A program made the translations under genes and the position numbers. Positions 18,468 to 57,572 of a stretch of DNA of 64,000 nt are shown here, piece after piece (the first letter of the stretch is position 1; every line of letters starts with the position of its first letter). Source of the stretch: an uncultured Gammaproteobacteria bacterium (GTDB lineage: Bacteria > Patescibacteriota > Patescibacteriia > UBA9934); assembly GCA_964452565.1 (NCBI GenBank), contig CAYVLY010000001.1, forward strand, positions 579,053 through 643,052. Direction: 5' to 3'. The notes below the pieces were generated by a model. That model was given only the letters and a program-made list of their open reading frames with translations. It was not told the DNA's origin and did not search any database.

Positions 18468-19367
18468 ATGGCCATCGAAGCCGCAGCACGCGTACACATC
18501 GGTGGACGCTCAAATCAGGAGGACGGAGCGACCTGTCTGGTCTCTCCGAGAGGCACCATCGCCTTACTCGCAGCCATCGACGGCATGGGCGGCCCTGATA
18601 GGGGTGAGTACGCTACCGGCGTGACCCGCTCACACCTCACGCGCCTGGCTGGACAAAGACCAACTGTCGGCAAGCTGTGTGCGGAGCTGTTGGCGGCAGA
18701 TGTCAATATCCGGGCTGACTCAGACGCCAAGGGTATCCACGAAAGCAACCTGCCCGGCTGTGTGGTGACGGCTGCGTGGATCAATCAACGCACGGGCAAC
18801 TTGATCATCGCCCACATCGGCGACACTCGCTGCTACATGATGGTCCCCCGCCAGAGCTGGATTCAAGTAACAACTGACCACACCCTGGTTCAACAAGATC
18901 ACCCGAGATTCACAGAGTCCGAGAGGATGATGTGCACGTACAACAGCATCATAACTCGCCATGTTGGTCGAGGATCGGACAAAATCGAGTTCTACGAACC
19001 CACGTGCCCAGACACCTATGCCCTGCTGCTCTGCAGCGACGGACTGCACGATGTGGTTCACGAGGACATCATCAACATGGTGATGTATGGGCTGTGGACC
19101 AAGAAGACCTACGATCAGGTTCTGCTCGAGTCCGAACGGGTCACCGAGATCCACCGAGAGCTGAACATCGCCGACAACGTTCTCGTGCTCAAGGTCATCG
19201 AGATTCTGCTGCGGGCCCGCAAGGGTGGGCGCACCTGCGCCCAGGTCGCCAGCGATCTCATCGAGCTCTCGCTGCTGTACCAGCCGCACCTCAAGGCCGA
19301 CAATGTCACCGTCGTGGTCGCTCGCGTGACGCCGACCACTACGGTCGTTGCCAAAATCGTACCTTAG
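18468..19367 (+). CDS. PP2C-family Ser/Thr protein phosphatase (high-GC island)
   Basis: GGRSNQEDGATC...AAIDGMGGPDRGEYA...LLCSDGL...DNVTVVVARV are PP2C motifs; ~63% GC versus ~45% for the neighbours. Confidence 0.8.
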   Translation: MAIEAAARVHIGGRSNQEDGATCLVSPRGTIALLAAIDGMGGPDRGEYATGVTRSHLTRLAGQRPTVGKLCAELLAADVNIRADSDAKGIHESNLPGCVVTAAWINQRTGNLIIAHIGDTRCYMMVPRQSWIQVTTDHTLVQQDHPRFTESERMMCTYNSIITRHVGRGSDKIEFYEPTCPDTYALLLCSDGLHDVVHEDIINMVMYGLWTKKTYDQVLLESERVTEIHRELNIADNVLVLKVIEILLRARKGGRTCAQVASDLIELSLLYQPHLKADNVTVVVARVTPTTTVVAKIVP

Positions 19368-21624: not shown

Positions 21625-22239
21625 CTAGAACGACCCGCCGTAGTAGGGCGTGAAGCTCTCGAAGCGCAGCTGCTCTTCACCTTGCAGATCGTAGACCACA
21701 ATGTCTTCGTCCACGCAGACCAGATTGCCGCGAGTGATCTCAGCGTAGAGGCCACTGGTTGACCCCCAGTCTGGCAGGATTGCCATAGGTGAATCACCAC
21801 CGGGGCACCCTTCGAGCATATCACGAGCGATCTCGATCTGGCTCGTGGGCCTATCTGCCCAGGCAAAGGCCACACGACCGGTTGACTGCACGACCCGCTG
21901 ATGAAGAACGCGCTCGCCATTGTGGGTCACAGCAACCTCGTAGATGCCTGCTCGCGTCAGGCACAGGACCGTGGTCGCCCAAGGCAGGATCTGCTTGTAG
22001 CCGATGGCATAGTGGGAATTGCCCTCGAACCCCAGATCCTCGCAGAACGTATCCAGGTTCAGGTAGTTCTCGATCTTGAGGTGTGGGATACCCCTTCCCC
22101 CATCCTCGAGTAAAGCATCGGCTGTCGGCGGTGATCCACTCATGTCGAAGTAGATCGCCCGTGCCTTGGGGGTAAAGAACCATCCGTTGGCGATGAGCAG
22201 TGCGGCGATTGCTGCCATGAAAAGAAGAACGCGTCGCAT
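21625..22239 (-). CDS. Secreted hypothetical protein (high-GC island)
   Basis: Signal peptide MRRVLLFMAAIAALLIANG; GGAGG SD; ~62% GC; no family recognised. Confidence 0.5.
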   Translation of the reverse strand: MRRVLLFMAAIAALLIANGWFFTPKARAIYFDMSGSPPTADALLEDGGRGIPHLKIENYLNLDTFCEDLGFEGNSHYAIGYKQILPWATTVLCLTRAGIYEVAVTHNGERVLHQRVVQSTGRVAFAWADRPTSQIEIARDMLEGCPGGDSPMAILPDWGSTSGLYAEITRGNLVCVDEDIVVYDLQGEEQLRFESFTPYYGGSF

Positions 22240-23954: not shown

Positions 23955-23975
23955 ACCAATATTAGCCCAAAGGGG

Positions 23976-24004
23976 TTGACAAAACCCAAAAACTAGTGTA
24001 TAAA
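23976..24004 (+). promoter_or_regulatory. Sigma70-like promoter for the LysM-vWA gene
   Basis: TTGACA, 17-nt spacer (aaacccaaaaactagtg), TATAAA; AAGGAGG SD before the ATG at 24085. Confidence 0.55.
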
Positions 24005-24084
24005 CACCGGTTCCTCAGTTCCTTCATTCGCCTTACCTGTCCATCCTGGACTCCACCCCCGAAGCTGACCCAAGGAGGTCCACA

Positions 24085-24975
24085 ATGCTTCCCACTGACC
24101 TTCGCCTCAACCAAGGCACCCCGTACAACCACGCCCGTCGCCAGAAGCTCCAACGCGCCGGCATCATGATCGTACTCGGCCTTCTCGCCACCCTCGTGGT
24201 GCTCGTCATCTCCTGCTCTGGTGATGATGAGTTCACCTACATCGAGATGGGCACGGCCTGGCACCAGGAGCCCGAGCGCGCGTACATCGTGCAGAAGGGC
24301 GACAACCTGCACAAGATCGCGGCGAAGTACGAAAACGTGAGCTGGGAGGATATCCTCTTGGCAAACGACACACTCAAGGCCAAGTACGAGCAGATCTGCA
24401 GCAAGAAGTCCGCCGGGTACCGCAACAGCTCCAGCCGCCGCGGCACCTTCTGCAACGACCGGTACAACCGGCCGTATGGGAACACGCTCATGCCCGGCTG
24501 GACGCTCATCATCCCGCCCGGCAAAGCGCCCCAGGCCATCCACGACATCGTGCTCGAGAACATCGAAGCAAGCGACAAGATCGGCCTGTTGATCGATGAC
24601 ACCGGCTCCATGGGCAACAACCTCAGGGAGGTAGCCCAGTTCTACAGTGCCGCGCTCAACAAGCACGGCCGGGACAATGTCGGTATCTGGCTCTACTCCG
24701 ATGGTGAAACCTGGAAGGTCGAGGACGGTGGCTTCCACACCAGCGGCGACACTGAGAACACCCACGGTGCGCTCAAGGTCGTGGCCGATGCCGACCCGGA
24801 CGTGATCATCCTTGTGACCGACGAGATCGGAGACGACTGGGACTGGGACAGCGTGCCTGACCTGCCCCCGGTGATCGCCAACTGCATCCCGGACGGAGAT
24901 GGCGACTGCGAAGGCTCCATGTCCAAGCTGGCCACCGATACCCACGGCGAGTTCGTCCTGCTCACCGGCTTCTAG
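24085..24975 (+). CDS. Membrane-anchored LysM + von Willebrand factor A (vWA) domain protein (high-GC island)
   Basis: TM IMIVLGLLATLVVLVI; LysM YIVQKGDNLHKIAAKYENVSWEDILLAN...PGWTLIIP; vWA MIDAS-like LIDDTGSMG and ...VIILVTDEIGDDWD. Confidence 0.65.
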   Translation: MLPTDLRLNQGTPYNHARRQKLQRAGIMIVLGLLATLVVLVISCSGDDEFTYIEMGTAWHQEPERAYIVQKGDNLHKIAAKYENVSWEDILLANDTLKAKYEQICSKKSAGYRNSSSRRGTFCNDRYNRPYGNTLMPGWTLIIPPGKAPQAIHDIVLENIEASDKIGLLIDDTGSMGNNLREVAQFYSAALNKHGRDNVGIWLYSDGETWKVEDGGFHTSGDTENTHGALKVVADADPDVIILVTDEIGDDWDWDSVPDLPPVIANCIPDGDGDCEGSMSKLATDTHGEFVLLTGF

Positions 24976-25035
24976 TCACCCTCTTCCCTCCTTCGACCCC
25001 CGACCATCTGGTTCGGGGGTTCGCTGCGTCTAAAA

Positions 25036-25707
25036 TTGACCAGTACACAATTTTGCAGTAAAAATAAACCAGCACACTTACATGCGGGAGAACAATTGGA
25101 AAAAGAACAGTTGGCGATACTTGCTTCTATCACAGTAGGTCTGATAATGATTGTCTTCAGTTGGAGATACATCATGCTGGTCAAGCAGAAAAAGACTGAT
25201 CCCACCCTATCTATGTGGCTCATCTTTCTCATCGGGGCTGGCTTAAGCCTCACAACTCACCTTTCTGATGACAAGACCGACGTCTTGGGCAGTGCGCTCA
25301 ACATTGTAGACGTGCTTGCTATATTCACGATCATAGTGGGTGTAATGATCTTCGGTAAGAACAAAGAGATTCGGCTTCAAGACTTTGAAAAGAAGTACCT
25401 AGCAGGGGCGTTATACATCGTGCTCTTTTGGCAAGTCTTCGATGATGCCTTTACCTCCAACCTACTCGTACAAGTGCTCATGACGTTTGGGTACTTCCCA
25501 ACAACAGAGCATATGGTCCGATCAGGCAAGAACACAGAATCATTCAAGGCCTGGGGTCTGGCTCTCTCAGCATCGATCGTGGGCTTTTACCCGCCATACG
25601 TGGAGGAGAGCCTTCTTGGCCAAATCTATGTCGCCAGATCGTTTCTCTCCGTGATCTTTATCCTCTGCCTGATGACCTACTTCGAACGTCGAGCACGCAA
25701 GAAGTAA
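25036..25707 (+). CDS. Hypothetical multi-pass membrane protein
   Basis: Several hydrophobic helices; start uncertain. Confidence 0.4.
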   Translation: MTSTQFCSKNKPAHLHAGEQLEKEQLAILASITVGLIMIVFSWRYIMLVKQKKTDPTLSMWLIFLIGAGLSLTTHLSDDKTDVLGSALNIVDVLAIFTIIVGVMIFGKNKEIRLQDFEKKYLAGALYIVLFWQVFDDAFTSNLLVQVLMTFGYFPTTEHMVRSGKNTESFKAWGLALSASIVGFYPPYVEESLLGQIYVARSFLSVIFILCLMTYFERRARKK

Positions 25708-25734
25708 TGCTGCCAAGGCAAAGGCGCTACTCAA

Positions 25735-25765
25735 AAAGACCCTCACCGGGGTCTTTCCTGCTTTA
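25735..25765. terminator. Bidirectional rho-independent terminator (convergent with the ychF end)
   Basis: aaagaccc-tcaccg-gggtcttt 8-bp perfect stem flanked by A- and T-tracts. Confidence 0.55.
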
Positions 25766-25777
25766 TTGATCAATAAA

Positions 25778-26948: not shown

Positions 26949-27173
26949 CCTTCCTGGGAACTATCGTAAAATGCTCTTTTGAGTATAAACTTCTGAAATT
27001 TGAGTAGATTTGTTTGAAAATTTTTTCGGCAATGCTGTGGTATTGGCTAAAAAATTTTCAGGCAAAGATACCGACTTTCAGGAGTTTAGACCAAATATGG
27101 CGTTTTGCGATAGTTCCCCCAGCCCTTTGGTCATTTATGGCCGTGAATCTACCACTTTCCACCGGAGATCATC

Positions 27174-28406
27174 ATGATCCTTTCCCTTCTCCTTGCGATC
27201 TGCCTGGCCCTGTCCTCCTCTGCCTTCGCACAAGGGGACGAGGTGGTCGAGCCGACAGAGGTACAGCAGCCCGAGGTTGTTGAACCTCCCGAAAAGCCCC
27301 CAGAAGAGCCTGAGCCGACGATCATCGGTCCGGAACCGGACTTCGAAGAAGTGCGCAGACCCAAGACCTTCGCAATGGTCGTGGGTACCTCGAGCTTCGT
27401 GAACTACCCACAGCTCACCAGGCCCGAAGCCGAACCGCTCTGTGAACTCATCGTGACCACGCTCTACAAGGGCCTCCCCCGCGGCGACGTGGTCGCGCTG
27501 TGCGAGCCCGAAGATACCATGCGTGCGAAGATCCTGGCGGCTGCACAACAGCTGGGTGAGCGGCTGCAGGATAACGACACTGTGATCTTCATTTTCATCG
27601 GTGTAGGAGTTGGTGGTGACTACGGTGACCCTGTGCTGCTCACCTATGACTTCTCTCCTTCTGAGGATGGGCTGTCTACGACCACGACCACCACGAACGA
27701 AGTTCACGCAACGCTCAGCCCAGATGGCGCCAAGCTCATCATGGCACTGGATGCGGTCTACAACAGCTCCGTTGACATCATAGGCTCTGATGGAGTCATC
27801 AACATCTCCACGATCGGCCCGATCGCTGAGCACGCCCCTGAGGGAGTACTCGCGATCTCGCACGTGAGTGACGTCGAGCAGATGCCCACAGACAGCCAGC
27901 TCTTCGGCCAGACGCTCGCAAGTGCCTTCGAAGGAGACGCAGATCTCGACGGCAACAACCAGATCTCGCCTAGCGAGCTGAGTCGCTTCATGGTCAGTAC
28001 CATCATGCTCGAGGGTGGCAAGCCCCCTGGTGTGAACGGCGACTGGAAGGCTGCCACCGATCCGATCATCTCCATGCCAATCGAGCTTCCCGAACCCCGC
28101 GAACCCCGCGCTTGGCGCCTGAGCGTGAACCCCAGGATCCGCACTGCATCGATCATCACTGGCGGCACAATGCTCGTCGCAAGCGCCACGAGCTGGATAA
28201 TCACGTCCAGATGGCAAAAGTGCCTAACCGAACCGTGCTACCACGATCTCGACAGCTACAATCAGGCAGTTGCATTGCGCGATACCTGGGCCTGGATGGC
28301 ACGTGGAACCGGAGCGCTCGGCATCGTCGGCCTGGGCGGGGGTCTGTACCTCAAGCCTACGCCCAACGGCCCCGAAGCTCAGGTGAGCCTCACGGCTCGG
28401 TGGTAG
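27174..28406 (+). CDS. Secreted caspase-like (peptidase C14 fold) protein apparently lacking the His/Cys dyad, with EF-hand/dockerin-like Ca motif and C-terminal TM anchor (high-GC island)
   Basis: Signal peptide MILSLLLAICLALSSSAFA. Caspase-like block FAMVVGTSSFVNYPQL...DTVIFIFIGVGVGG...LIMALDAVYNSS has GVG in place of SGHG and no Cys at the DAC position. DADLDGNNQISPSELSRF; C-terminal hydrophobic IITGGTMLVASATSWII. Confidence 0.5.
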   Translation: MILSLLLAICLALSSSAFAQGDEVVEPTEVQQPEVVEPPEKPPEEPEPTIIGPEPDFEEVRRPKTFAMVVGTSSFVNYPQLTRPEAEPLCELIVTTLYKGLPRGDVVALCEPEDTMRAKILAAAQQLGERLQDNDTVIFIFIGVGVGGDYGDPVLLTYDFSPSEDGLSTTTTTTNEVHATLSPDGAKLIMALDAVYNSSVDIIGSDGVINISTIGPIAEHAPEGVLAISHVSDVEQMPTDSQLFGQTLASAFEGDADLDGNNQISPSELSRFMVSTIMLEGGKPPGVNGDWKAATDPIISMPIELPEPREPRAWRLSVNPRIRTASIITGGTMLVASATSWIITSRWQKCLTEPCYHDLDSYNQAVALRDTWAWMARGTGALGIVGLGGGLYLKPTPNGPEAQVSLTARW

Positions 28407-28428: not shown

Positions 28429-28472
28429 CGCCCGGACTCTCATCCTCGAGAGCCCGGGCGCCATGCTTTTTA
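28429..28472 (+). terminator. Rho-independent terminator
   Basis: cgcccgg...ccgggcg stem, then ccatgcttttta. Confidence 0.5.
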
Positions 28473-28639
28473 TAGGTAATAAAATTAGTCTTTTTGTCTC
28501 AAGGTTCAACCTCTGAGGTTAAGCCTTAATTTCCTATATCAATACATCGAAACAGACTTAGCTGTGATGCTCCGGTAAAAAAAGAAGAACCCCCGCCGCA
28601 GGCAGGAGTCCTGAGCGGGAGAGAAGTGGATCTCGATCA

Positions 28640-29008
28640 CTACCTGTTGACACCGAGCTCTTCGGTGAGACCGGGACGGTGCTGGGCCATGGCACGGCAG
28701 ACCCTGGCAGCGATCGGCTCGAGCCGATCGTGCCGGCGGTACTTGCCGAAGAAAATCCAGAACCGTTTGGTAACTGCAGCGTCGCCGATTTCCGTATCTT
28801 TGATGAACTCGATCAGGTACCCTGCATCCTGCTCGCACTGGCTGCGGAACGGATTGCCGACCTGACGCTGACGCTGCCTGTCCCTTTCCTGGCGGAGGCT
28901 GAGGAGGAAGATGTGCAGAAGACTCGTGAGTATCGCGATGATCCTTTCGTTTGATCTGGGTGGACTCAAAAAGCCGATCAATATATCAAAAAAGGGACCC
29001 GCTGTCAA
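28640..29008 (-). other. Ambiguous small ORF pair in a high-GC segment (minus 122 aa with TTG start, or plus 28679..28954 91 aa); coding status uncertain
   Basis: Overlapping ORFs on both strands in a 63% GC stretch; no clear RBS for either. Confidence 0.2.
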
Positions 29009-29049: not shown

Positions 29050-31404
29050 TTACTCAACCACCCCCTCACCCTCTTCCAATGGTTCAAGTTCTTCTTCACT
29101 GACCAACCCTTCTTGCAGTCGCTCGAGACGTTGAATGATCAATTCATTATCAGGATTTTCTTCCAAAACAATCTCCACCTGCTCGATTGCAAGCTCGATC
29201 TCACCCTGCTGTTCAAATACAGATGATAGGAACCATCGTGCATTGCTGTAGTCAGGTGATAGCTCCACCACATACTCAAGCTGCACCTGTGCCTCATCTA
29301 GCTTTCCTTGCTGTAGATACAAAACTCCAAGCTGAAACGCGAGTCCTGCATCATATGGACTTATATCCTGCAATGCCTCAAGCCCAGCAATTGCATCAGT
29401 TAGATTCCCCTGCCTTTCATATGTAAGCGACAAATAATACTGTGCTATTGAGTAGTCATTTTTTAGTAATAACGCATTCATGAGAGCCTGAACTGCCAAA
29501 TCTAACACCTGCTCCTTATACGCCAGTGCGTCTTCTGAAACACCCTCATCCTCACTTGCAGCAACTATATCCAATAAGTCAGCTTGCGCGATATATGCCC
29601 TTCCTAGTGATACATAGAAAACCGGATTTACTGGAGATAGTAATATGGTGCTCTCATACGCCTGAATGGCAAAAGCATCAGCACCAGAGATAAACGGAGT
29701 CATCTCGCGGTATACATCTCCCAGCATTGACTGATTAGCCACAACATTTGGAGAAAGTTCAACAGCACGCTGAGCATAATAGACAGTATTTGCAATATAT
29801 CCCTGCACTGCCTCTGGATTAACATCTGGGTCAGTCAATAACTCGGCAGTCTTCACAAGTAATGCCTGGGATAAATTCCTTGCATAGATATCGCTCCACT
29901 TATTCAACTGTGTGGCGCTCACAAGATCTTCAATCACCTCATCTGTGCTGTCTCCATATTCACTGTGAGCTACAGCTTTTGCAAAAGATACATCAGCTGC
30001 GTAACGAGAAATCGTTATAAAACCAGTTGTGACAATTAATATTGCACACACAACAAAGCCAAATGATAATGCAAACGATGCCTTTGGAGTTTTCTTATAA
30101 GTAATTGTCCGCGACTTTGTTAAAACTGCGCTCAACATGGCCGCGCCAAACAACCAAAGTAGAGACAATATAGTTGTATTTGATGAATACAAGAATTGAG
30201 ATGCAGCCAATATAATCCAGCCAAGTGTAAGAATGAATACTGGCAGCCACTTGTCATCTTTTTTAGTTCTCAAGAGCCACCCCACTGCCTTCAGCATGGT
30301 TACCAGCAACACAATGAGGTAAACAAGCGTCACGGCTATACCTGCAGTGGTAAGCGTTGTCAGTATGTGGCTTCCAGAACGATTGAAAGATAAATTCCAA
30401 AACTCTGACAGATTGACTGACGCAGGCTTGTATTGATGATAGTCAATCTCAAATGTTCCAGGGCCTGATCCAAATAGCCAAGAAGTGTTAGCGAGTGTGT
30501 CCTTTGCTATTTGATAACTTGACGAATAGGTTGGCGCAACCTCAACTGGAAAAACAAGCCCACCTGGAGTTGGAACAAACATGAACACCAGCGAGATGAC
30601 CAAAACCATCACCGGTAAGAAGATCCTCGATAATGTCACGTGTCTGAGGTCGCGTAAGAGCATAACGCTAAAGATGATCGCAACCCCCAAAACCGTCAAA
30701 GCCCACAAAAACCAATAATCTAACCCATAAAGAACAATGACACCAAGGGGAATGATTGCTCTCGAACACAATGCAGCGGTTTTTGATAAGAGGCCCCGCT
30801 CACCATCAAAAAAATCCTTTTGCAAAAATCCAAATCCCAAAGCCATTACAAGAGCCATTACAGCGATTACCCCCATTGCATTTGGTGACCCAATAAAGTT
30901 CTCAGCAAAAACATTTACACCAAAAACAGACAGTGTTCCAAAAAGAAGGATGAACACACTCACAATGAAAACAAGATCTACAGCCCTATATATCGAATCC
31001 TTCTTATCCAAAACATTTACTCCAACCAGGAACAAAACAATCATTGCAACCCAGGACACCAAACTCACATACTCCTGCCCCATACCGCCAAAGACGCTAG
31101 TCCAAGGGGCGAGCGACATGCAAGATGAGATTAAAACTCCGGCTAACAGTATTATTAACCAAACGTGCAGGCTTGTTTTTTTGTATTCAAGCGACTTTAA
31201 GACAATAAACGATGCCAGCCATGACAGTAGTGCAAGGATCGCACAAAAGACCAATACTGTCTGTTTGTTTATCTCAAGTGCATCTGAGGTCCATGGTAAG
31301 TATGCTAACGGAATCAGAATAAGTGCTGCATACAAAAAAAATCGTGCAGCTTTTCTAAAGAATAAAACGAGACGATGCTCTCGCCTATGCAAAACATCTA
31401 ACAT
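29050..31404 (-). CDS. O-antigen ligase (Wzy_C)-like polytopic membrane protein with C-terminal TPR repeats
   Basis: More than 10 TM helices in the N-terminal 450 aa; C-terminal TPR-like repeats (...AQYYLSLTYERQGNLTDAIAGLEALQDISPYDAGLAFQLGVLYLQQGKLDEA...); acidic tail. Confidence 0.6.
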   Translation of the reverse strand: MLDVLHRREHRLVLFFRKAARFFLYAALILIPLAYLPWTSDALEINKQTVLVFCAILALLSWLASFIVLKSLEYKKTSLHVWLIILLAGVLISSCMSLAPWTSVFGGMGQEYVSLVSWVAMIVLFLVGVNVLDKKDSIYRAVDLVFIVSVFILLFGTLSVFGVNVFAENFIGSPNAMGVIAVMALVMALGFGFLQKDFFDGERGLLSKTAALCSRAIIPLGVIVLYGLDYWFLWALTVLGVAIIFSVMLLRDLRHVTLSRIFLPVMVLVISLVFMFVPTPGGLVFPVEVAPTYSSSYQIAKDTLANTSWLFGSGPGTFEIDYHQYKPASVNLSEFWNLSFNRSGSHILTTLTTAGIAVTLVYLIVLLVTMLKAVGWLLRTKKDDKWLPVFILTLGWIILAASQFLYSSNTTILSLLWLFGAAMLSAVLTKSRTITYKKTPKASFALSFGFVVCAILIVTTGFITISRYAADVSFAKAVAHSEYGDSTDEVIEDLVSATQLNKWSDIYARNLSQALLVKTAELLTDPDVNPEAVQGYIANTVYYAQRAVELSPNVVANQSMLGDVYREMTPFISGADAFAIQAYESTILLSPVNPVFYVSLGRAYIAQADLLDIVAASEDEGVSEDALAYKEQVLDLAVQALMNALLLKNDYSIAQYYLSLTYERQGNLTDAIAGLEALQDISPYDAGLAFQLGVLYLQQGKLDEAQVQLEYVVELSPDYSNARWFLSSVFEQQGEIELAIEQVEIVLEENPDNELIIQRLERLQEGLVSEEELEPLEEGEGVVE

Positions 31405-31416
31405 ATTTGATCTTTA

Positions 31417-34400
31417 TTATTCGGAAAGTTCAGCCTCCGTTGTTGATTCCTCTACTATAATTTGTGTCTCTTCTACAGGCTCCTCTGGTACTGCTTCGGT
31501 TTCAGACTCTTCGACAGCCTCAGGCTCAGCTGTATCAGCCTCCTCATCAATAGGCTCTTCTACAACCTCTTCTTCGATGGCCTCATCGGTCACTTCTTCC
31601 TCGACAACCTCCTCAGACTCATCAGACGGCTCGTCTTCAACCGGCTCCTCTTCTGATTCATCAACAGGCTCCTCAGTCTCTTGATCTGGAGATTCATCGG
31701 CCTCATCTTGTTTCTCAGTCTCTTGATCATCGGCTTCATCTACTTCACTTTGCTCCTCATCTTCAATCTGATCATCCACCTCAACGACCTCATCATCATC
31801 TTGATCAGCAATCACATCTGCTTCAACCTGCTCATCTGGCTCATAGTCCTTATGATATGCAATCACAAGCCAGTCAACATCAACATGTGATGTGCCCTCG
31901 GTGTCTCTAATGATAAATCCGTCATTCTCACGGTTAATTGCATAAAGTGAGCCGGTAGCATTGTGCGCTGTTAGGTACACGCGATATGGGGCTGTTAATG
32001 AAACCACATCTGCGAAGCTCTCGTCATAATCATCAAAATAAATGTGTGCTCTTCCCTGCTCGAGTTCGATTGTTCCTGAAAGCTGGATCGTTGTTTCACG
32101 TGAGGTCACCGCATATGTCTCGATTGTATCTCCACCATAGGTTTCGATCTCCTGAACAAATCGATCGCCAGTCCTAAATGCGCCGCTGTCGTCGATCGAC
32201 CAGGCGCTTCCAATTCCACTCAATGAACTGACTGAGATCAAGCTTCCACCGTTTAGATTCACCACACCTGAAAGATCCAACGATGTCGACGGGATCAACT
32301 CGGTTAACTCATTGTCTGAAATATCAGGCTCTTGTCCATCGTAATAAGATGGTCTGACAAACACTGTAATAGATCCTGTGCCACTACTGAACGATTCCAT
32401 TGCATATCCAACAATTGGGCCAGCCTCAACTGCCTTCATGGCATACCCTGGCGTTGATGAGGTTGTGAGTGGATCACCAATTTCGATCGATCCATTTTCT
32501 GCGCTTACATAGGTTGGAACTCGTCCGGCTAGAGCCACGGGAATGTGCCCGTCGATGTTTTGACCAGCTAAGAATCCGGGTTGGGTTGAAACAATTCCTG
32601 CAATCGTGTCGTCATAGGTTATTCCAGTTGAACGCATTACTGACTCCTCGTCATTTGCAAAGACAACAACCTCTCCAGGTGAAACAGATTCAACCGCTGG
32701 GAACATCTCTGCAAAGTCATACGACCCCGAGCCCCATCCAGATGCGTTTGTCCTCATGAAGTCACCGCCTAATCCAGTTGAGCCATCGTAATAAATGTAC
32801 TTATCGGTTTGAAGTACTCCTTGATCTGATGGGTATAGCTTTCCAGAGATTGCCAGGTCACCATCTTGGTTCACGAAAGCTAGTTCATTTGAATCTCCGT
32901 CTTCGATAGACAACTTATATTCACTCGCATCTGTGACATGTGTGACAAATCCAAGAGAAACATCCTGCGCGCCTGCCCCGTCCCATCCAGATCCGCGCAG
33001 CATCAATCCATATGAATCCATGCCTTGAGTTGAAGCATTGGCCGTGCCGGTCGCACCCAATGCCAGATCGTCAGAAACAAGTGTTACTGATCCGCTATCT
33101 GTTAATACCCCAACAGCTTGCCATGTTGGTTTAACATATACATCTATAGTTCCTGTTCCTGAAGAGTGCGATTCAAGCGCCTGTCCTAGAACATAGCCAA
33201 CTCCTGTTGCCTTCTTTGCAACTCCAGAAGTTGATGAAAGTGTAATGTAATCTCCAGCACTAATCGAACCACCCTCAGTGTTAACAGTCACCGGAACCTG
33301 CCCTAAAAGCGCTACTGGAACATAGACACCAGTGTCTCGCCAGCCATCAAACCAGTTACCAAGTGTATTTGGTGCAACCGAGTATGCACCAATTATCTCA
33401 TCGGCGTCTGATGCAAGAACTACGTTCCCAGATGAATCAAGTCCAATGATATCGCCCTCTGAAAAACTGGAGAGCGTCCCTGGGAAAAGCTCCGCATAGT
33501 CAGATCCAGCTGATGCATTTGTTACTCCTCCACCGCCATCACCCTCAACTGCTCCAAGCACTGTTCCGTTCCCGTCCTTGAACATGAGGTAGTTACAAGC
33601 CGCGGTTGGGTTCGTATCAAGACATGCCTGAATATTAATTCCCATGTTTGTATCTGCATTTCCATCATTAAAGAAACTTGCAATAAAATCTGTGGTACCG
33701 GTTGCGAAAACATTTATCGGCTGCCCATCTCCTGTTTGGTTGATATAAAGACCATCTGCTGTACCAAAATTAGCTATGTTGATGCCCCTACCATTTCCGG
33801 TCTGATTAATATTCAAAGAAGCTCCCGTACCACTATTACTCAAATTGAGAACATTTCCCGTCGAAGCGGTATCAGAAATCTGGAAGTTCACCAAGCCGGT
33901 TGTGGTATTTGTAAAGTCTGTTCCTGAGTCGGTACGGTTCACATTAATTGCCTGCCCGGTTGTCAAAGTGCTATTTGTTATATCAACAATATTCGATACT
34001 GCTTCACCTGTTCCATCGATCTCCAGCAGGCCATACATGTACAAATCGCCTGCTCCAGTGGCTATCGCTGCGGTAGAGGGAGAGTTACTGTTTTCTATAT
34101 GCACTGCTGACCCATGAAAATAGCCTGCATAGTTAGCTGTCCCACCGCCGGCACTTGCCCGAATTCCATAACGCGTTGTGCCGGCACTATTATTTGAAAA
34201 ATCACCACCAAAACCTGTTGTGAGCGTGCCTGCACCTGAAGAAATATTACCCCACACACCAGTCGCCTGTGTAACAGTTCCTGCAGTTGTTACAGCATTT
34301 CCATAAACACCAATCGCTAATGGAACAGTGGAACCGGCGCCATTGTTTTGAACCTGTCCATAAAGTCCAGTCACTGTTGATTCAATTGCACCTGCGGCCG

Positions 34401-35577
34401 TTGAAGTATTTATAGCGATCCCCTCAACTCCACGAAGTTCATTAAGCTCCCCTGAACCGGAGTTGGTGGCGGTCCCACCAATTGCTATTGCCTTTTGATC
34501 GTAGCCCCCTGCCTCAACACTGCTATTGGTTATCGCGGAATATATTTCGTACAGATTGTATATTCCGTTACCACCAGATGCTGCTGCCGAAACTGTGGAA
34601 CTAGCTTCAAATAAGTTAAAGTTGCCCGGAGCCGCAGCATATAGGGCAGCTGGACTATGCTCTAAATAGCCATTTTGAAAATCCCACTTATCAGCATTGT
34701 ATAAAATGTCAGCATCAGCACCGCCAGCATCTTTAAAGCTCAATGTTGGATTCTGTGCTGCATCACCAAAATAGATAATTCCTGTGCCTGGTGCTACACC
34801 AAAATCCGCAGCCGCGGCTGTATTTGCACCAATGGCAACATCGTCACTTGAAGTCGTTAAATAGACTACCGAGCCTCCGTCAGTCCAACCGAGATCAGTG
34901 GTTAGAGCAACAATTCCTGTAGAATTAGGGAACGTGATAGTCTTATCGCCGACCGTTGGATCAGTTATCGCAAACCTTGTTTCAAAATCGTCTGCAGTAG
35001 CTCCCTCAAACACTAAGGCGTTTTCTCCAGCAAATGTGGCAGCAGTGAAATTATTTACTCCAGTCACAGTATTGTCCGCTGCTAACTGGAAGAAGCTTGC
35101 AGATCCAATACCATCGAGTGTGTCGGCATTGAGTGCATACGGAACTGCCACCAAACGCTTTCTTGGGGTTAGCGCCTCTCCCTCAATCGTAACCTTTAGA
35201 TATACCCCCGCATTATCTCCAAAAACCCCGGCCGGAATCGCGGCATACGAGTCGCCCGTATCACCAAGGTTCTCTGAAAAAAGACCATCAGTTAGGGTTA
35301 TTGTCTTTGCAGTTGATGTGGCGCAGGTTGCAGATGAGTTAGACCAGATACACGAACCTGCTGTTGGGTCATCGTAAAACTCAAATAGTATATCCACGGT
35401 GGCATCAGATACTGGAACGCTATTTGCGTTTAGAATACGACCTTGATATGTAATGAACCTCGGTGGAGTTGCAGCCGCAGAGACAAGTTGAGCTAAAGCT
35501 GAAAAAACAATAAACAAAGCCAGCAAAAGGACTGTGGCCTTTTTTGTTTTTGAAAATGGTTCACTCAGTATTCTCAT
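31417..35577 (-). CDS. Giant secreted/cell-surface protein (~1386 aa) with a tandem-duplicated ~135-aa C-terminal module and a ~150-aa poly-acidic tail
   Basis: Signal peptide MRILSEPFSKTKKATVLLLALFIVFSALA; Gly/Thr/Asn-rich beta-like repeats; two paralogous modules starting ...SDYAELFPG and ...SYDFAEMFPA; D/E-rich C-terminus. Confidence 0.7.
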   Translation of the reverse strand: MRILSEPFSKTKKATVLLLALFIVFSALAQLVSAAATPPRFITYQGRILNANSVPVSDATVDILFEFYDDPTAGSCIWSNSSATCATSTAKTITLTDGLFSENLGDTGDSYAAIPAGVFGDNAGVYLKVTIEGEALTPRKRLVAVPYALNADTLDGIGSASFFQLAADNTVTGVNNFTAATFAGENALVFEGATADDFETRFAITDPTVGDKTITFPNSTGIVALTTDLGWTDGGSVVYLTTSSDDVAIGANTAAAADFGVAPGTGIIYFGDAAQNPTLSFKDAGGADADILYNADKWDFQNGYLEHSPAALYAAAPGNFNLFEASSTVSAAASGGNGIYNLYEIYSAITNSSVEAGGYDQKAIAIGGTATNSGSGELNELRGVEGIAINTSTAAGAIESTVTGLYGQVQNNGAGSTVPLAIGVYGNAVTTAGTVTQATGVWGNISSGAGTLTTGFGGDFSNNSAGTTRYGIRASAGGGTANYAGYFHGSAVHIENSNSPSTAAIATGAGDLYMYGLLEIDGTGEAVSNIVDITNSTLTTGQAINVNRTDSGTDFTNTTTGLVNFQISDTASTGNVLNLSNSGTGASLNINQTGNGRGINIANFGTADGLYINQTGDGQPINVFATGTTDFIASFFNDGNADTNMGINIQACLDTNPTAACNYLMFKDGNGTVLGAVEGDGGGGVTNASAGSDYAELFPGTLSSFSEGDIIGLDSSGNVVLASDADEIIGAYSVAPNTLGNWFDGWRDTGVYVPVALLGQVPVTVNTEGGSISAGDYITLSSTSGVAKKATGVGYVLGQALESHSSGTGTIDVYVKPTWQAVGVLTDSGSVTLVSDDLALGATGTANASTQGMDSYGLMLRGSGWDGAGAQDVSLGFVTHVTDASEYKLSIEDGDSNELAFVNQDGDLAISGKLYPSDQGVLQTDKYIYYDGSTGLGGDFMRTNASGWGSGSYDFAEMFPAVESVSPGEVVVFANDEESVMRSTGITYDDTIAGIVSTQPGFLAGQNIDGHIPVALAGRVPTYVSAENGSIEIGDPLTTSSTPGYAMKAVEAGPIVGYAMESFSSGTGSITVFVRPSYYDGQEPDISDNELTELIPSTSLDLSGVVNLNGGSLISVSSLSGIGSAWSIDDSGAFRTGDRFVQEIETYGGDTIETYAVTSRETTIQLSGTIELEQGRAHIYFDDYDESFADVVSLTAPYRVYLTAHNATGSLYAINRENDGFIIRDTEGTSHVDVDWLVIAYHKDYEPDEQVEADVIADQDDDEVVEVDDQIEDEEQSEVDEADDQETEKQDEADESPDQETEEPVDESEEEPVEDEPSDESEEVVEEEVTDEAIEEEVVEEPIDEEADTAEPEAVEESETEAVPEEPVEETQIIVEESTTEAELSE

Positions 35578-35641
35578 ACTTCCACATCTATGCGCATGGT
35601 TGTGCACAGGTAGGAAATACGACGGATGTATTATACCTCGT

Positions 35642-38134
35642 TTACGGTTGTTTTTTTAGCTCTGTATCAACAGAAATCAACTCTGGTTCTTTTTTGCCGG
35701 TCAGGTCTATAGGGCGAACTTCCTGTTTTTCATATCCAGGTCTTTCAAATGTCACATAATACTCATTTGGCCCTGCCATGAATGCATATCTACCAGACCC
35801 ATCTGTAACAGTGGATTCGATCAACTTATTAAACTTTGGTTCAAATAACCGAACAACTGCATTTGGTAATGCCTTCTTGACATGGGCGTCACGAACAATT
35901 CCCCACCCCTTCTTCTTTCGTAGTTTTGTTAACGCCTTTGTGGTTCCATAAACGGTCACATGAACAGTTACAAGGGCAATACTAAATATTGTTGGTTGAA
36001 TTATTAGAATAACAACTGCCATTAACAATCCCGCTAAGGCTAAAACATTCTGAAATACCCTCAAGAACCTCTTGAATATCAACTTCTTTGGTGAATGATA
36101 CTTCTCCTCCTGCGAAGGATCGACCGGAATATTTGCAGCAATTACGACATCTTCTTGAGTCACCTCAATAATGCCCTGAGTATAAATATCCTCAAACATT
36201 TCATCTTTAGTAGCTCCCTCCATGTATTCGCTTGGGAATGTAAATCCAGCTTTCTTAACATCGAGCTTGTATCTACCCGGCTTCACACGAAGAATGTAGT
36301 GACCCTCCTTGTCAGAGACCGTGGTCTTAACAAGCTTACCCTGTTCCGAATAGAGTCGGATTGTTGCAAGATCAACCGGCAACTTTGTTATTGCATTGTA
36401 AACAGTTCCAATGCGCTTTTTTCTTCGACGTGCAAAGAATAAAATTGGCGAGCTAAACAAATACCGTAGATATGGGATGAGATTAAAGGATGACGAAAGA
36501 ACTCCAGCGCTTCCCACTGCAGTTACAACTGCAACTGGAGTTGTCACATCTGCCACTGCCTGTACCTCGGGAAGTTCGCGTATTTCATTAATAACCTCCA
36601 CGACTTCTACTACGGTCTCGGCAACAACCTCAACTGTTTCCGCAACTGCACCAACAGGCTCCTCTTCCTCCTCAACAACCACAATTTCAGAACGCGTCAT
36701 CCGAATTGATGGGGCTAATACATTATTTGAAACTCGTATGACAACCTCTGCGTCTTCATAGCCACTCTTACCTGCAGTCACAGTATAAACACCATCAGGT
36801 ACATAAAATCCTATCGCCCCACTGCTGCCGGATGAGGTAGGGTTCGACTGCCCATATGAACCAGCATCCCACTGAGTTCGATCCTCACCACTTCCTTCAT
36901 AAACAATAACCACCGCACTTTCAACCCCTTGATCTTCATCGTCGATCTCCTCATAAACCCAACCATAACTAACAACTCCCCATGACTGAGTATCTGTAAC
37001 AGTCTGACCATCAGTGTAGTCAACAATGACTGTTACCACTTGATCATCCTGCTCGACTGGGATCAACCCCTGATATATACCTTCTAGAACTTCAGCAAAA
37101 CCATAAGTTGTATCGTCAACGACCACCGTAACCTCCTCAACGTCTTCTTGATCATCAACAATAACCTCAACCTGAGCATATGTGCCTGGGAGTAGATCGT
37201 CATCATCAATAACAATCTGGCCATTACCAACAGTTATCTGCGTTTCAACTTCGCGATCTTCTTCCTCTCCAACTCCGTCGTCTTCAGGTTCATCCTCATC
37301 CTCTTCTGAATCAACTACACCGCCTCCATCATCAGCTGCGCCATCTCCGTCATCTTCACCGTCATCGTCCCCTTCTCCGTCTGCGTCGCCATCGTCGTCA
37401 TCACCCTCATCCTCCGGCTCTGGTTCGGGTTCCGGCTCTGGTTCGGGTTCGGGTTCCGGTTCCGGCTCTGGTTCGGGTTCGGGTTCCGGTTCCGGCTCTG
37501 GCTCAGGTTCCGGCTCACCATCGTCTCCATCATCACCTCCAACAGGGCCACCCCCACCACCAGTAGGACTTGGCACGGTTGTACTCACATTTCCATCATC
37601 ATCAGTCACAATAGGAACTGGTACAGACCCTGAAAGTTTATTCGCCGCTGTTGTAATCCAAATAAAATACGTAGCGGCATTTGATGGATTTGTAATTCGA
37701 TTGGACCCCGAACCATATGCTGATGCGTTTGTTCCAATCTCAACAATGACCTCACTTCCGGATGCCACCTCACCACCATCCCCAGAACACCAAGCCACTG
37801 TTAGATTCTGGCCAGAAACGGAAATATCTACATGGTCTGTTCCGGTACAATCATCAGCTGTTGTTAAATCAACTCCATCGTCGGATACATCGACATCGTC
37901 TTCTGTTATTGAAGAAAGATCAAAACCTGCGGGATAAGTGATCGTCAGGGTGTCTGTGTCGGGAATGGCAACCGATGTAGTAAAAACAAATCTGTGATTA
38001 GATCCCGTGCTTACTTTTGAGGAGGTTATCTGGTCGTAAAGATCTGTGGGTGTAGAAAATGCAAAAGCAAAGCTAGCCGACAAGGTCAATGCAGCAATCA
38101 CGAGGAGAACAAATGTTTTAACGACGCTTCGCAT
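35642..38134 (-). CDS. Surface protein with an (EP)19 repeat, poly-acidic region, CarboxypepD_reg-like domains and TM segments
   Basis: Signal peptide MRSVVKTFVLLVIAALTLSASFA; EPEPEP... x19; motifs GHYILRVKPGRYKLDVKKAGF and GSGRYAFMAGPNEYYVTFERPGYE. Confidence 0.7.
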   Translation of the reverse strand: MRSVVKTFVLLVIAALTLSASFAFAFSTPTDLYDQITSSKVSTGSNHRFVFTTSVAIPDTDTLTITYPAGFDLSSITEDDVDVSDDGVDLTTADDCTGTDHVDISVSGQNLTVAWCSGDGGEVASGSEVIVEIGTNASAYGSGSNRITNPSNAATYFIWITTAANKLSGSVPVPIVTDDDGNVSTTVPSPTGGGGGPVGGDDGDDGEPEPEPEPEPEPEPEPEPEPEPEPEPEPEPEPEPEDEGDDDDGDADGEGDDDGEDDGDGAADDGGGVVDSEEDEDEPEDDGVGEEEDREVETQITVGNGQIVIDDDDLLPGTYAQVEVIVDDQEDVEEVTVVVDDTTYGFAEVLEGIYQGLIPVEQDDQVVTVIVDYTDGQTVTDTQSWGVVSYGWVYEEIDDEDQGVESAVVIVYEGSGEDRTQWDAGSYGQSNPTSSGSSGAIGFYVPDGVYTVTAGKSGYEDAEVVIRVSNNVLAPSIRMTRSEIVVVEEEEEPVGAVAETVEVVAETVVEVVEVINEIRELPEVQAVADVTTPVAVVTAVGSAGVLSSSFNLIPYLRYLFSSPILFFARRRKKRIGTVYNAITKLPVDLATIRLYSEQGKLVKTTVSDKEGHYILRVKPGRYKLDVKKAGFTFPSEYMEGATKDEMFEDIYTQGIIEVTQEDVVIAANIPVDPSQEEKYHSPKKLIFKRFLRVFQNVLALAGLLMAVVILIIQPTIFSIALVTVHVTVYGTTKALTKLRKKKGWGIVRDAHVKKALPNAVVRLFEPKFNKLIESTVTDGSGRYAFMAGPNEYYVTFERPGYEKQEVRPIDLTGKKEPELISVDTELKKQP
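37415..37517. repeat. Hexanucleotide (GGYTCN) tandem repeat encoding (EP)n, including an exact 30-bp duplication (37441-37470 = 37471-37500)
   Basis: Direct inspection of the sequence. Confidence 0.85.
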
Positions 38135-38972
38135 ACCTCCAAATGATAAACAATATAATCAAGCACCCAAGTATCAACCCCAGGGTCTTGACTGATACAA
38201 ACCAAACTACCACCGAATCTGAGTGCACTTCTCCACCATCCCAAGGCTCCGCATCAAATCTGAGCTCATAGGGCCCCAATGCCCAATTGTTATAAATATC
38301 AACAACAAATGTGCGCTCCTGGTTGTTCGCAATTCTTTTTGATTCTGGATTGATATCGAACACATCAACCACGCCGCCGGTCCAACTAATAAGCGAAACT
38401 ATGCCGTTTGGCTGCACAAACCTATCACCCGAATTTCTCACAGTATAAAAAGTCTGAGCATTGCCAAAAGAAAATGATCTGTCAGCTTGGTACCCCAACC
38501 ATTCAACAGATTCAGATATATCATCACCGATTGTTAAAAAAGCTAACGAAATAAAGCCAGACTGTACAGATGGCTCCAGCTGGCCTGTAACACTTTCTAC
38601 TATTCGAATCCCAACTACCATTGTCTGCGATTTGGTCGCAATATCAGGACTTATCACTATGCCAAATTCTCTAACCTCACCGGGCATCAGTTCAAATTCC
38701 TGGAGTTCTGACGAAAACCATTCTTCAACCCCGGGGTCTAGATCAAAAAAACTATACTCACCCTCCTCAAGACCAAGGTCCACTCCAATGAAATCAATTG
38801 CATATGCCCGAGAATCTTCGTTGCTATTTTGAAGTGTTATTAGAATCTCGGCACTCTCGCCAGGATCAATAGAAACGTCTTGAACCGATGGATATAAAAG
38901 CGATGCATGTACAGGCTGCGTCAGGCATAGAAAAAATATAACCAATGATACAACTCTAATAATCACCGACAT
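38118..38972 (-). CDS. Secreted protein with C-terminal TM anchor and short basic tail (cell-surface protein; DUF916/DUF3324-like architecture)
   Basis: Signal peptide MSVIIRVVSLVIFFLCLTQPVHA; C-terminus ...LGLILGCLIILFIIWRYAKRR; the start overlaps the upstream gene and the stop overlaps the downstream gene. Confidence 0.5.
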   Translation of the reverse strand: MSVIIRVVSLVIFFLCLTQPVHASLLYPSVQDVSIDPGESAEILITLQNSNEDSRAYAIDFIGVDLGLEEGEYSFFDLDPGVEEWFSSELQEFELMPGEVREFGIVISPDIATKSQTMVVGIRIVESVTGQLEPSVQSGFISLAFLTIGDDISESVEWLGYQADRSFSFGNAQTFYTVRNSGDRFVQPNGIVSLISWTGGVVDVFDINPESKRIANNQERTFVVDIYNNWALGPYELRFDAEPWDGGEVHSDSVVVWFVSVKTLGLILGCLIILFIIWRYAKRR

Positions 38973-39876
38973 ACAACAATGTAACTGTGTGTGAATAGGC
39001 TCCGCTACTTATAGAATCGTCGGTTGATAGCTTTAAGGTTATGAAATCTCTAGTATTGAATGAGTTGGATGACCTGCTACCTATCTGCTGAAGGCTGCTT
39101 GTTATTGGGCTATCCTGTGTATCAAAATCTGAACTTGCAAGCGTTGTGTCAGATGACTTGGCACCATACTCTTTAGACCCCGCCGCGACAGCACCGTCAG
39201 AAACATCACTAATTGTATCAGTTCCATTAGTTAAATTCTGATCCTCATATACATAAACGCTGTAACCATCACCAACATCTGCGGTTACTTCCCATCCAAT
39301 TATAGAAGTTGAAACCGTAGAGGTTGTCGGCTCTGCCATTGTGGTCGCACTTGCATTCAATGCATAAAGATAATCGCTACTTCCATCTATGCTTGGTGTA
39401 GCGCCAGAATGCCACTCGTCAACAGTGATATCAGGATCGCTAATTGAAGCTATCTTTCCCATTGTCGAAACCTGCGAGGCTCCCTCGTCCTGTACCAACG
39501 CAACCATATCACCAACCGAAAATCCTGTTACGGAAGAAACTGTTACCGTTGTGCTAGATAGGGATGTTGCCGATACTTGAGATGAGCGATCCTCTATATA
39601 AATTGAAAAATCAGCAACGCGATCGTAGACACCGGCTCGATATCCCTGGTCAAGCTTATAAGTCGTGCTTGAACCCCCAGAGTCCGCGCTTTGATCAACG
39701 GAGTCTCTCAAGATATATGACGTTGATGAAGAGGCGTCGTCACCTCCCGCGCTTATGCTATCCCATTGAATCTGGAAGTTGGTTGAGGTCATCTGACCAG
39801 AAACAGAAAATCGGCAGCCAAAAATAGCTACAAGAATAGTGAGAGCAATGACTAGCCCCTTCTGTTTCATACACAA
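38956..39876 (-). CDS. Secreted Ser/Thr-rich hypothetical protein (first gene of the surface operon)
   Basis: Signal/lipobox-like MKQKGLVIALTILVAIFGC; S/T/D-rich; overlaps the next gene by 17 nt. Confidence 0.5.
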   Translation of the reverse strand: MCMKQKGLVIALTILVAIFGCRFSVSGQMTSTNFQIQWDSISAGGDDASSSTSYILRDSVDQSADSGGSSTTYKLDQGYRAGVYDRVADFSIYIEDRSSQVSATSLSSTTVTVSSVTGFSVGDMVALVQDEGASQVSTMGKIASISDPDITVDEWHSGATPSIDGSSDYLYALNASATTMAEPTTSTVSTSIIGWEVTADVGDGYSVYVYEDQNLTNGTDTISDVSDGAVAAGSKEYGAKSSDTTLASSDFDTQDSPITSSLQQIGSRSSNSFNTRDFITLKLSTDDSISSGAYSHTVTLLYVGDY

Positions 39877-46889: not shown

Positions 46890-47554
46890 AGAGCTTGTGC
46901 ACTGAGAGCCTGCAGGAGCAACTACAGCAGTGGCGGCTCCCGGGCTAGCTTTCATGTATCAGCGCTTCCGCATTGGCTGCGCACGTGCACCCTTGCGGTA
47001 TTTACATAGTATTCCATTTGTTGTCTATTTGCAAAAAGCATGCCGCCTGGGCAACCGAGGTTACCCAGGCGGGGAGGAGACGCAAGAGACACGAGGGTCT
47101 CCAAGCGCGCAGATTTGAGGCCGGGGGCCGCCAAGCGACTCTCGCTGGCGTGGGGGGGAGGACGGCCGAGCAAGGCTCTGCCCGACGACCACCCGACCTC
47201 GTAGATTTGGGACCGGGCCAGCAGGCTCTGAGGCTTGCCGGCGTGGCATAGTAGGTAGCTTCCTTGGAGACACTGATCCTACTTGCAGGTGCGCCGTGGT
47301 CAGCGCTGTGGGACGCGGCTCCATGCAGAGCGCGGCCCGGCCCAGGATTAAATCGAGACGTAGCTGCCTACGTGACGGCGGATCTTAACGGTACCGCTGC
47401 CCTCTGCAAGGACAAAACGTCTGCAGGCTCCGTAGCTCGTTCGACTCAACCCTTCAGAAAAATGCTTCAAGATTATGCCATAGCAGTGACGACGAGTCAA
47501 TAGCAAGAGGCCCGCTTGTCCACAGCGGGCCTCACGATGAGGAGCGTTCGAGAT

Positions 47555-47941
47555 CTAGACCAGGCCGGTCAGGATGAGCCCCAGATCCACGGCAGCGTGA
47601 CAGAACTGATCCATCTCGATGGTCTTGATGACCTCATAGCGCGCCTTGAGATCGTCGATCACCATGTGTAGGGCCACTCGAATCACGATAGCGGCGAGCG
47701 TCAGATTGAAGCTCAGTGCAATCGTGAACTCTGGAACTACATCGAGCTGAAAGCTCGGAATGGCCCAGAGCAGGAGAATTGGCGCATTGGCCGTGCACGC
47801 ATGGTAGAAGAGAACCCCTCGGCTCTTGCCCTTCTCCATGCACTGCCAACTGCTCTGCAGACCGAAGTCTCCCCAGGCGTGCAAGAGATACATGACCGCG
47901 AGCTTGGTGGCCACGAGCAGTACGAGCAGAGCGAAGTCCAT
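47555..47941 (-). CDS. Hypothetical membrane protein (high-GC island)
   Basis: 128 aa with hydrophobic segments; strong SD AAGGAGGG; ~62% GC. Confidence 0.45.
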   Translation of the reverse strand: MDFALLVLLVATKLAVMYLLHAWGDFGLQSSWQCMEKGKSRGVLFYHACTANAPILLLWAIPSFQLDVVPEFTIALSFNLTLAAIVIRVALHMVIDDLKARYEVIKTIEMDQFCHAAVDLGLILTGLV

Positions 47942-56960: not shown

Positions 56961-56989
56961 TTGACTCTTTCTTAGTTTTGTGTCATTAT
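56961..56989 (+). promoter_or_regulatory. Sigma70-like promoter for the high-GC hypothetical gene
   Basis: TTGACT-17-CATTAT; AAGGAGA SD before the ATG at 57047. Confidence 0.4.
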
Positions 56990-57046
56990 TTGACGTTCCT
57001 GCAGGTTAGCAGGGCAAAAGCAGGGGCACAGCCCCGAAGGAGAGTC

Positions 57047-57478: not shown

Positions 57479-57572
57479 CCATACCACAACAGCACGTGTG
57501 GCCCGGTCTCCTCGATCGCCTGCCACTCACCCGGCCGCAATCCCATGGATGCGGCTGGTTCTGTTTTATAAC

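Follow-up and report, generated by a model that had tools for sequence, protein, structure and literature searches.

The 64,000-nucleotide stretch analyzed here (the window; positions 579,053 to 643,052 of contig CAYVLY010000001.1, GenBank assembly GCA_964452565.1) carries on its forward strand, at 27174–28406 with the stop codon included, a gene for a 410-amino-acid (aa) pseudo-orthocaspase from the candidate phyla radiation (CPR). Sequence comparison and a structure model identify the product as a caspase homolog with a caspase fold, and its active site is dead, the catalytic His, the catalytic Cys and one Asp of the S1 pocket having been replaced. The protein is a pseudo-orthocaspase variant; catalytically dead bacterial caspases have already been described (PMC6426788). 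It probably serves as an exported, membrane-tethered, Ca2+-stabilized module that binds rather than cleaves. An earlier note, made from the letters of this DNA alone, had proposed a secreted caspase-fold pseudo-enzyme with a calcium-binding-like loop and a membrane anchor; the motifs that it quoted were all found, at aa 64–71 (KTFAMVVG), 143–148 (GVGVGG), 193–198 (DAVYNS), and 255–269 (DADLDGNNQISPSEL).

Searches with the single protein gave little indication of its ancestry. Pfam at E ≤ 10 returned only weak EF-hand matches and no match to PF00656 (Peptidase_C14), NCBIfam and PDB phmmer searches returned no match, and a word-indexed homolog search recovered only the protein itself. Relatives, 96 in number, emerged only when 1.84 billion representatives were searched exhaustively with phmmer. 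Direct matches had E-values of 1e-10 to 1e-13, and some of these passed the Pfam Peptidase_C14 model, with P0007, P0009, P0010, and P0011 (E 1e-10 to 1e-11) above its gathering score; 25 of the 42 aligned relatives matched Peptidase_C14. With no Peptidase_C14 match for the query itself, homology was established through relatives that pass the cutoff of that model and through profile–profile comparison. In the strictest test, a profile of 12 CPR sequences that held no true caspase (A2) was compared with a profile of true D-H-C homologs only (A3), and hhalign gave a probability of 99.87% and an E-value of 7.1e-32 over 250 columns. Standard family models thus miss pseudo-caspases such as this one.

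The family profile also matched the metacaspase structures Yca1 (E 1e-11) and TbMCA2, as well as the bacterial GSU0716, with the GHG and D-x-C-H-S-G motifs in register. These matches span the p20 part only (profile positions 23–196); no sequence match to a metacaspase-type p10 was found, but no dedicated p10 model was run. The AlphaFold2 model had a mean predicted local distance difference test score (pLDDT) of 86, rising above 95 for aa 61–300, and the caspase-like domain (C14, orthocaspase-type) was delimited at aa 63–300 (27360–28073). Every one of the top 43 PDB matches of the model in Foldseek had a caspase fold (best E 8.5e-9, probability 1.0), the proteins being metacaspases, MALT1, GSU0716, and caspases-9, -6, -1 and -7. 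The hhalign, family-profile and Foldseek results bear out the caspase fold that the earlier note had claimed.

For the active site, relatives were sorted on an hmmalign column table into 52 true caspase domains, 36 Cys-less domains and 15 domains of the CPR clade. The column of the catalytic His held His in 52/52 true and 25/36 Cys-less domains; in the CPR clade it was filled by variable aliphatic, small and other residues (V, L, A, S, P, Y, R). In the query it was V144 (27603–27605; GVG for GHG), which faced the invariant His both in hhalign and in the Yca1 alignment. The catalytic Cys column was Cys in 52/52 true domains, A/S/V/I in the Cys-less group and V/S/I/L/T in the CPR clade, the query residue, placed by column counts and hhalign, being V195 (27756–27758; DAV for DxC). 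The loss of both catalytic residues, as first read from the letters, was therefore confirmed, and the clade alignment offered no other conserved His, Cys or nucleophile that would put the catalytic residues elsewhere.

Of the two acidic residues of the S1 pocket, one appears to have been lost. D193 (27750–27752), in the D-x-C motif, was Asp in every aligned domain of the three groups, one domain being gapped there. The first pocket Asp, present in 48/52 true and 20/36 Cys-less domains, was L/T/A in the CPR clade and L89 (27438–27440) in the query; L89 and D193 were equated with Asp95 and Asp211 of TbMCA2 by motif position (PMC6426788), not by superposition. Next to L89, C90 (27441–27443) was, like C110 (27501–27503), Cys in 14/15 CPR members. 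In the other groups the C90 column was Ala and Cys was absent from the C110 column, and the pair probably forms a disulfide. Residues invariant in the CPR clade were G145, D193, G215, P216, D257, G289, and W291.

Previously described pseudo-orthocaspases comprised 858 of 9,994 bacterial orthocaspases, about 90% of them from Alphaproteobacteria and Cyanobacteria (PMC6426788), and were mainly of the Tyr-Ser and Tyr-Asn types with both pocket Asp kept (PMC6426788; Klemencic, Asplund-Samuelsson, Dolinar & Funk 2019). The present protein shares with them its standing as a prokaryotic p20 homolog, the substituted His-Cys dyad, the fold and at least one acidic pocket residue (PMC6426788). It differs in its CPR lineage, its Val-Val combination, the loss of one pocket Asp, its predicted export and its putative two-helix anchor, and it is not seen by the Pfam C14 model. 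No paper in the literature library searched links Patescibacteria with caspase homologs. The gene extends pseudo-orthocaspases beyond Alphaproteobacteria and Cyanobacteria and, if the location proposed below is right, from the cytoplasm to the cell surface.

With PF00656 Peptidase_C14 and MEROPS clan CD, C14 (Yca1, 4f6o; TbMCA2, 4afr; GSU0716, 3bij), the protein shares the fold, the strand order and the motif positions (hhhhG..Y, D-A, GxG, D-x-x), and with bacterial C14 members also an EF-like ‘G-x-A-D-x-D-x-D-G-x-I-T-x-x-E-L’ element; unlike those families it has neither catalytic His nor Cys, and the query lacks a Pfam C14 match. The nearest curated subfamily was NCBIfam NF047832 (‘caspase, EACC1-associated type’), which sister-group proteins matched best (E 1e-10 to 1e-17), with scores of 38–61 bits against a cutoff of 140. 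The query did not match it, and among the CPR members scanned (the query, P0097, P0102, and P0103) only P0103 gave a trace match (E 0.0063, 16 bits). Nor was there an EACC1 or effector-associated domain, and the context appears secreted rather than that of a cytoplasmic conflict system. PADLOC returned no match for the query and weak partial matches of relatives to its generic ‘caspase’ model, giving no link to defence.

Export is suggested by the N-terminus, the most hydrophobic segment of the protein (hydropathy, KD19, 2.26), in which hydropathy and an AxA-type site predict a signal peptide at aa 1–19 (MILSLLLAICLALSSSAFA, followed by QG; 27174–27230) cleaved between AFA and QG. Most aligned CPR orthologs likewise begin with a hydrophobic segment that carries an AxA-type site, and together with the clade-specific Cys pair this supports the earlier claim of secretion. 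An acidic Glu/Pro-rich linker, predicted to be disordered (aa 20–62; 27231–27359; pLDDT 51–68), follows the signal peptide and was found only in the subclade of P0001, P0097, and P0100. Beyond the caspase-like domain lie a Pro-rich stalk whose length varies among orthologs (aa 301–319; 28074–28130; pLDDT 52–69), a C-terminal helical hairpin (aa 320–386; 28131–28331) and a tail modeled with low confidence as a beta-hairpin ending in Trp (aa 387–410; 28332–28403; pLDDT 56–60). Among the CPR members and type-b sister proteins examined, every one ended in F or W.

In the model the hairpin consists of two long helices (320–352 and 359–386, pLDDT 82–91), both rich in Gly, Ala and Ser. Their hydrophobic parts (about aa 324–345 and 375–393) pair at the base, and the tip is polar. 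The two segments of the query had hydropathies (KD19) of 1.43 and 1.06; values for orthologs and sister-group proteins lay mostly at about 1.1–2.1. A two-helix membrane hairpin is thus a plausible, putative anchor. Of the ‘C-terminal hydrophobic helix’ described in the earlier note the hydrophobic C-terminus stands, with a predicted two-helix hairpin in place of a single helix; the anchoring function claimed for it is plausible, the hairpin being only moderately hydrophobic. Short pairs of Gly/Ala-rich hydrophobic helices are known from glycine-zipper membrane hairpins of the SlyB/Pcp type. The resemblance to these is compositional only and serves as a lead, and no Pfam or NCBIfam model matched the C-terminal module in the query or the relatives scanned. 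A CxxxC at aa 350–355, considered as a disulfide marker for topology, was not conserved in the clade. An extracytoplasmic location is supported jointly by the signal peptides, the Cys pair (14/15), the hydrophobic two-helix C-termini and the envelope-type neighboring genes, and from the sequence we infer export via a cleavable signal peptide and the topology that goes with it.

Near the end of the caspase-like domain, aa 257–268 (DLDGNNQISPSE; 27942–27977) form an EF-hand-type loop, which DSSP on the model places between helices 243–255 and 266–281, within a helix–loop–helix at aa 243–281 (27900–28016). The register is D257-L-D259-G-N261-N-Q-I264-S265-P-S-E268, so that ligand positions 1, 3, 5, 9, and 12 are D, D, N, S, and E, all oxygen donors, and position 8 is hydrophobic (I264); position 6 is Asn where Gly is usual. 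The CPR-clade profile matched calmodulin EF-hands at an E-value of about 1e-7. The sequence supports the assignment, and the loop may bind Ca2+. It was conserved family-wide and equally so in true caspase homologs, which argues that the loop is built into the domain of this bacterial C14 subfamily rather than appended to it. The earlier description of a DxDxDGxxxISxxEL loop of ‘EF-hand/dockerin-type’ held for the EF-hand, with the register starting at D257 rather than D255. A dockerin was rejected, as the loop is single, position 12 is Glu and not Asp, and Pfam at E ≤ 10 gave no Dockerin hit.

The ATG of the gene is the first downstream of an in-frame stop codon, a Shine-Dalgarno sequence (GGAG, read from the sequence) lies 6 nt upstream at 27164–27167, and RNA folding placed a terminator-like GC-rich hairpin followed by a U-run at 28429–28472, beyond the stop codon (dG -27.1 kcal/mol, z -4.53, 0/200 shuffles as stable), which a simple consensus scan did not pick up. 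An antisense open reading frame (ORF) of 360 aa on the minus strand (27135–28217) was rejected, because the plus-strand ORF has homologs, a signal peptide, a Shine-Dalgarno sequence and a terminator, and because such a frame is expected in a GC-rich stretch with few stop codons. The locus was also present on an independent Logan assembly contig, with an identical protein and 0 mismatches over 15.9 kb, indicating that it is not an assembly chimera.

Intact orthologs occupied the same locus, between ychF and a gene for a tetratricopeptide repeat (TPR) protein, on seven independent contigs with YchF identities of 68–87%. The gene order ran from FtsK, further upstream, through EF-P, S18, SSB, S6, a methyltransferase and YchF to the pseudo-caspase, which is divergent from YchF and convergent with the TPR membrane protein, followed by a giant protein. 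The pseudo-caspase diverged much faster than its neighbors: it was 43% identical to the ortholog on L002, 45% on L003, 33% on L006 and 27% on L008, against 87, 84, 70, and 70% for YchF on the same contigs and 57, 41, and 37% for the TPR protein on L003, L006, and L008. The 64-kb window held no second C14 homolog.

A neighbor-joining tree separated the true, the Cys-less and the CPR-clade sequences. It suggests a stepwise loss, from an active D-H-C enzyme to a form that had lost Cys and kept His, and then to one that had lost His and the pocket Asp as well. Alongside these losses the Cys-less group gained the ‘GVGGDFGDP’ and ‘G-P-x-A’ motifs, and the CPR clade gained the Cys pair C90/C110 (in 14/15 members) and the invariant W291. 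The sister group with Cys lost and His kept includes one protein from a Myxococcota genome bin (71% GC). In the CPR clade, the closest relative shares a 90% cluster with a protein annotated as Candidatus Uhrbacteria (Patescibacteria/Parcubacteria), the name on which the CPR assignment is based, and the pseudo-caspase of the window is recorded on a 709-kb contig; only a few contig names underlie the taxonomic spread.

In composition the gene departed from its surroundings, with a GC content of 60% and a third-codon-position GC content (GC3) of 0.72 against about 44% and 0.39 in its neighbors. The same was true of every syntenic ortholog: GC3 was 0.62 against 0.39 in neighbors on L002 (1275–2441), 0.64 against 0.31 on L003 (8001–9209), 0.81 against 0.52 on L006 (8001–9140), 0.88 against 0.52 on L008 (6001–7161), 0.72 against 0.39 on L010 (132–1187), and 0.69 against 0.35 on L009 (540–1676). 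The offset, about 0.23–0.35, followed the host background (0.31–0.53) without decay, which is awkward for an account of old horizontal gene transfer with incomplete amelioration. Recent transfer or an assembly chimera was rejected as the source of the GC-rich island, since the arrangement recurs in the independent assembly and on six related contigs. Why the offset persists across diverged genomes is a separate puzzle, one that could shed light on what sets the base composition of individual genes in reduced genomes.

The genomes of CPR bacteria are tiny, and these bacteria are believed to live in attachment to other cells; their surface proteins are mostly unannotated ‘hypotheticals’. Eukaryotic pseudo-caspase scaffolds, such as cFLIP and the N-terminal domain of Raptor (PF14538), keep the caspase fold as a binding platform after catalysis has been lost. 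The present protein has no specific sequence relation to them (one weak Raptor_N match in 42 relatives), and compartment, partners and origin differ. With Val144 for His, Val195 for Cys and Leu89 for the S1 Asp, this caspase-fold protein would have lost peptide-bond cleavage. It would be exported by its cleavable signal peptide, and the C-terminal hairpin would most likely tether it to the outside of the cytoplasmic membrane. Selection appears to keep the fold, D193, the EF loop, the ‘G-P-x-A’ motif gained when Cys was lost, the Cys pair and the anchor, and because selection acts on such features a non-catalytic, Ca2+-stabilized binding module is the most likely reading: on the surface of an Uhrbacteria-like CPR cell it would hold a peptide or protein ligand without cleaving it. 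As the earlier note proposed, an inactive surface domain of this kind could act as a scaffold or sensor. One conserved, lineage-specific envelope protein would thereby be given a fold, a course of evolution and a mode of action that can be tested.

Several observations weigh against this reading. The CPR-only profile, searched against the PDB, matched EF-hands of calmodulin and no caspase among the 60 matches listed of 279, so that caspase homology needed profile–profile comparison, and the input alignment of the AlphaFold2 model contained true caspases, of which the model is therefore not independent. The EF-hand is single, not paired, and lies below the Pfam cutoffs (EF-hand_5, 17 bits against 25.9; EF-hand_1, 12.8 against 25.4). 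The anchor helices of the query are only moderately hydrophobic, and four Arg before the first helix do not fit the positive-inside rule for a first pass from outside to inside, for which reason the topology is proposed conditionally. The replacement of one S1 Asp by L89 weakens the idea that the pocket still binds basic peptides. Because the surrounding region is generally collinear, the conserved synteny says little about function.

Other explanations were considered. The protein might work together with a real protease or regulate it, as a decoy, docking platform or inhibitor in the manner of cFLIP on caspase-8 or of other pseudo-proteases on their active counterparts, which we regard as unlikely. 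Sister-group caspase-like genes adjoined a Peptidase_S8 + DUF5818 pair in three loci (L007 5457–8468, L011 2975–6179, and L013 5001–8128; one of these contigs bears the label Myxococcota_A UBA796), in convergent as well as divergent orientation, and D193 and the groove-side motifs are conserved though catalysis is gone. This association was absent from the CPR loci, none of which had an S8 protease, a DUF5818 protein or a second C14 homolog adjoining the gene, and since the genomes behind two of the three sister loci are clearly collinear, the association is weakly replicated.

A bolder proposal, to which we attach a rather low probability, is that of a lineage-defining surface receptor or adhesin, which would have arisen from a Myxococcota-type Cys-less caspase and, repurposed, would bind a partner or a ligand on a host surface in a Ca2+-dependent manner while evolving under diversifying pressure. 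The GC3 excess (about +0.3 in seven genomes, and likewise in the PP2C phosphatase gene described below) would then reflect a gene-specific force, for example GC-biased gene conversion driven by recombination at fast-evolving loci, and not leftover foreign composition.

It is improbable that the protein is a transmembrane Ca2+ sensor, with the signal of the EF loop relayed through the hairpin to a polar tip in the cytoplasm. The EF loop is conserved at all ligand positions, and about 30 polar residues form the tip between the two hydrophobic segments; yet the loop occurs also in true active caspase homologs, which gives it the look of a structural element, and the tip is short, poorly conserved and without a recognizable output domain. 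Little credence is given, too, to a decaying, functionless leftover of a horizontally acquired GC-rich gene. The composition, the loss of all catalytic residues and the very fast divergence (43% identity where YchF has 87%) would agree with a relic; against it, the full-length ORF has been kept at one locus on seven contigs through deep divergence, with its invariant motifs, anchor and, in most aligned orthologs, signal peptide, its own Shine-Dalgarno sequence and terminator are intact, and the clade has gained conserved residues of its own (C90, C110, and W291). A still-active hydrolase with non-canonical residues is very improbable: some enzymes do re-invent active sites, D193 is invariant and Ser229 (the near-invariant Ser numbered 231 in the MAFFT alignment) is Ser in 15/15 CPR members of the hmmalign table, but true caspases conserve both as well, so that neither is a newly acquired catalytic residue. 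The residues filling the His and Cys columns differ from one clade member to another, the surroundings of the pocket contain no conserved His or Cys, and C90 and C110 have the appearance of a structural pair.

Downstream of the pseudo-caspase, a run of envelope-type genes extended over 29050–39876 on the minus strand. Its products include a multi-pass protein of 784 aa with TPRs at the C-terminus, a protein of 1396 aa without family match, a secreted protein of 830 aa with CarboxypepD_reg domains, and two smaller proteins of 284 and 306 aa with signal-peptide-like N-termini. The 784-aa and 1396-aa proteins were syntenic with the pseudo-caspase in all longer contigs. Between the terminator and this run, a GC-rich stretch at 28540–29008 (57–61%) contained small overlapping ORFs on both strands without family match, 28679–28954 (+), called as a gene in the public assembly, and 28640–29008 (-). 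The stretch was not conserved in L003, where a TrmB-family gene occupied that position.

The window as a whole was a compositional mosaic. Housekeeping genes had GC3 values of about 0.30–0.57 (mostly 0.34–0.48), and about seven single-gene islets reached 0.64–0.87 with a GC content of 57–63% (18468–19367, 21625–22239, 24085–24975, 27174–28406, 28540–29008, 46973–47941, and 56972–57526). The first is a PP2C phosphatase gene adjoining ftsK (18468–19367, +; L003 398–1267), a second syntenic fast-evolving ortholog (49% identity) whose GC3 was raised in both genomes, at 0.74 against about 0.39 in the window and 0.52 against about 0.31 in L003. A homology test of 21625–22239 with a 161-aa ORF of L003 was negative. 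The ORF at 24085–24975 (+; 296 aa, GC3 0.87) had an N-terminus resembling that of a lipoprotein and a LysM domain that scored above the Pfam cutoff; the gene called on the opposite strand in the public assembly (23962–24945, -; L001 2430–3413; 327 aa, no family) is probably wrong.

This LysM gene lies with a gene for a 223-aa membrane protein in the gap between the methyltransferase gene and ychF (23955–25777), the content of which varied among related genomes: the gap was empty in L003, held two tiny ORFs in L006 and held a 153-aa ORF with a GC3 of 0.83 in L008. The inserts were not homologous to each other, the test of the LysM ORF against the 153-aa ORF of L008 being negative, which suggests that the gap is an insertion hot spot for GC-rich accessory genes.

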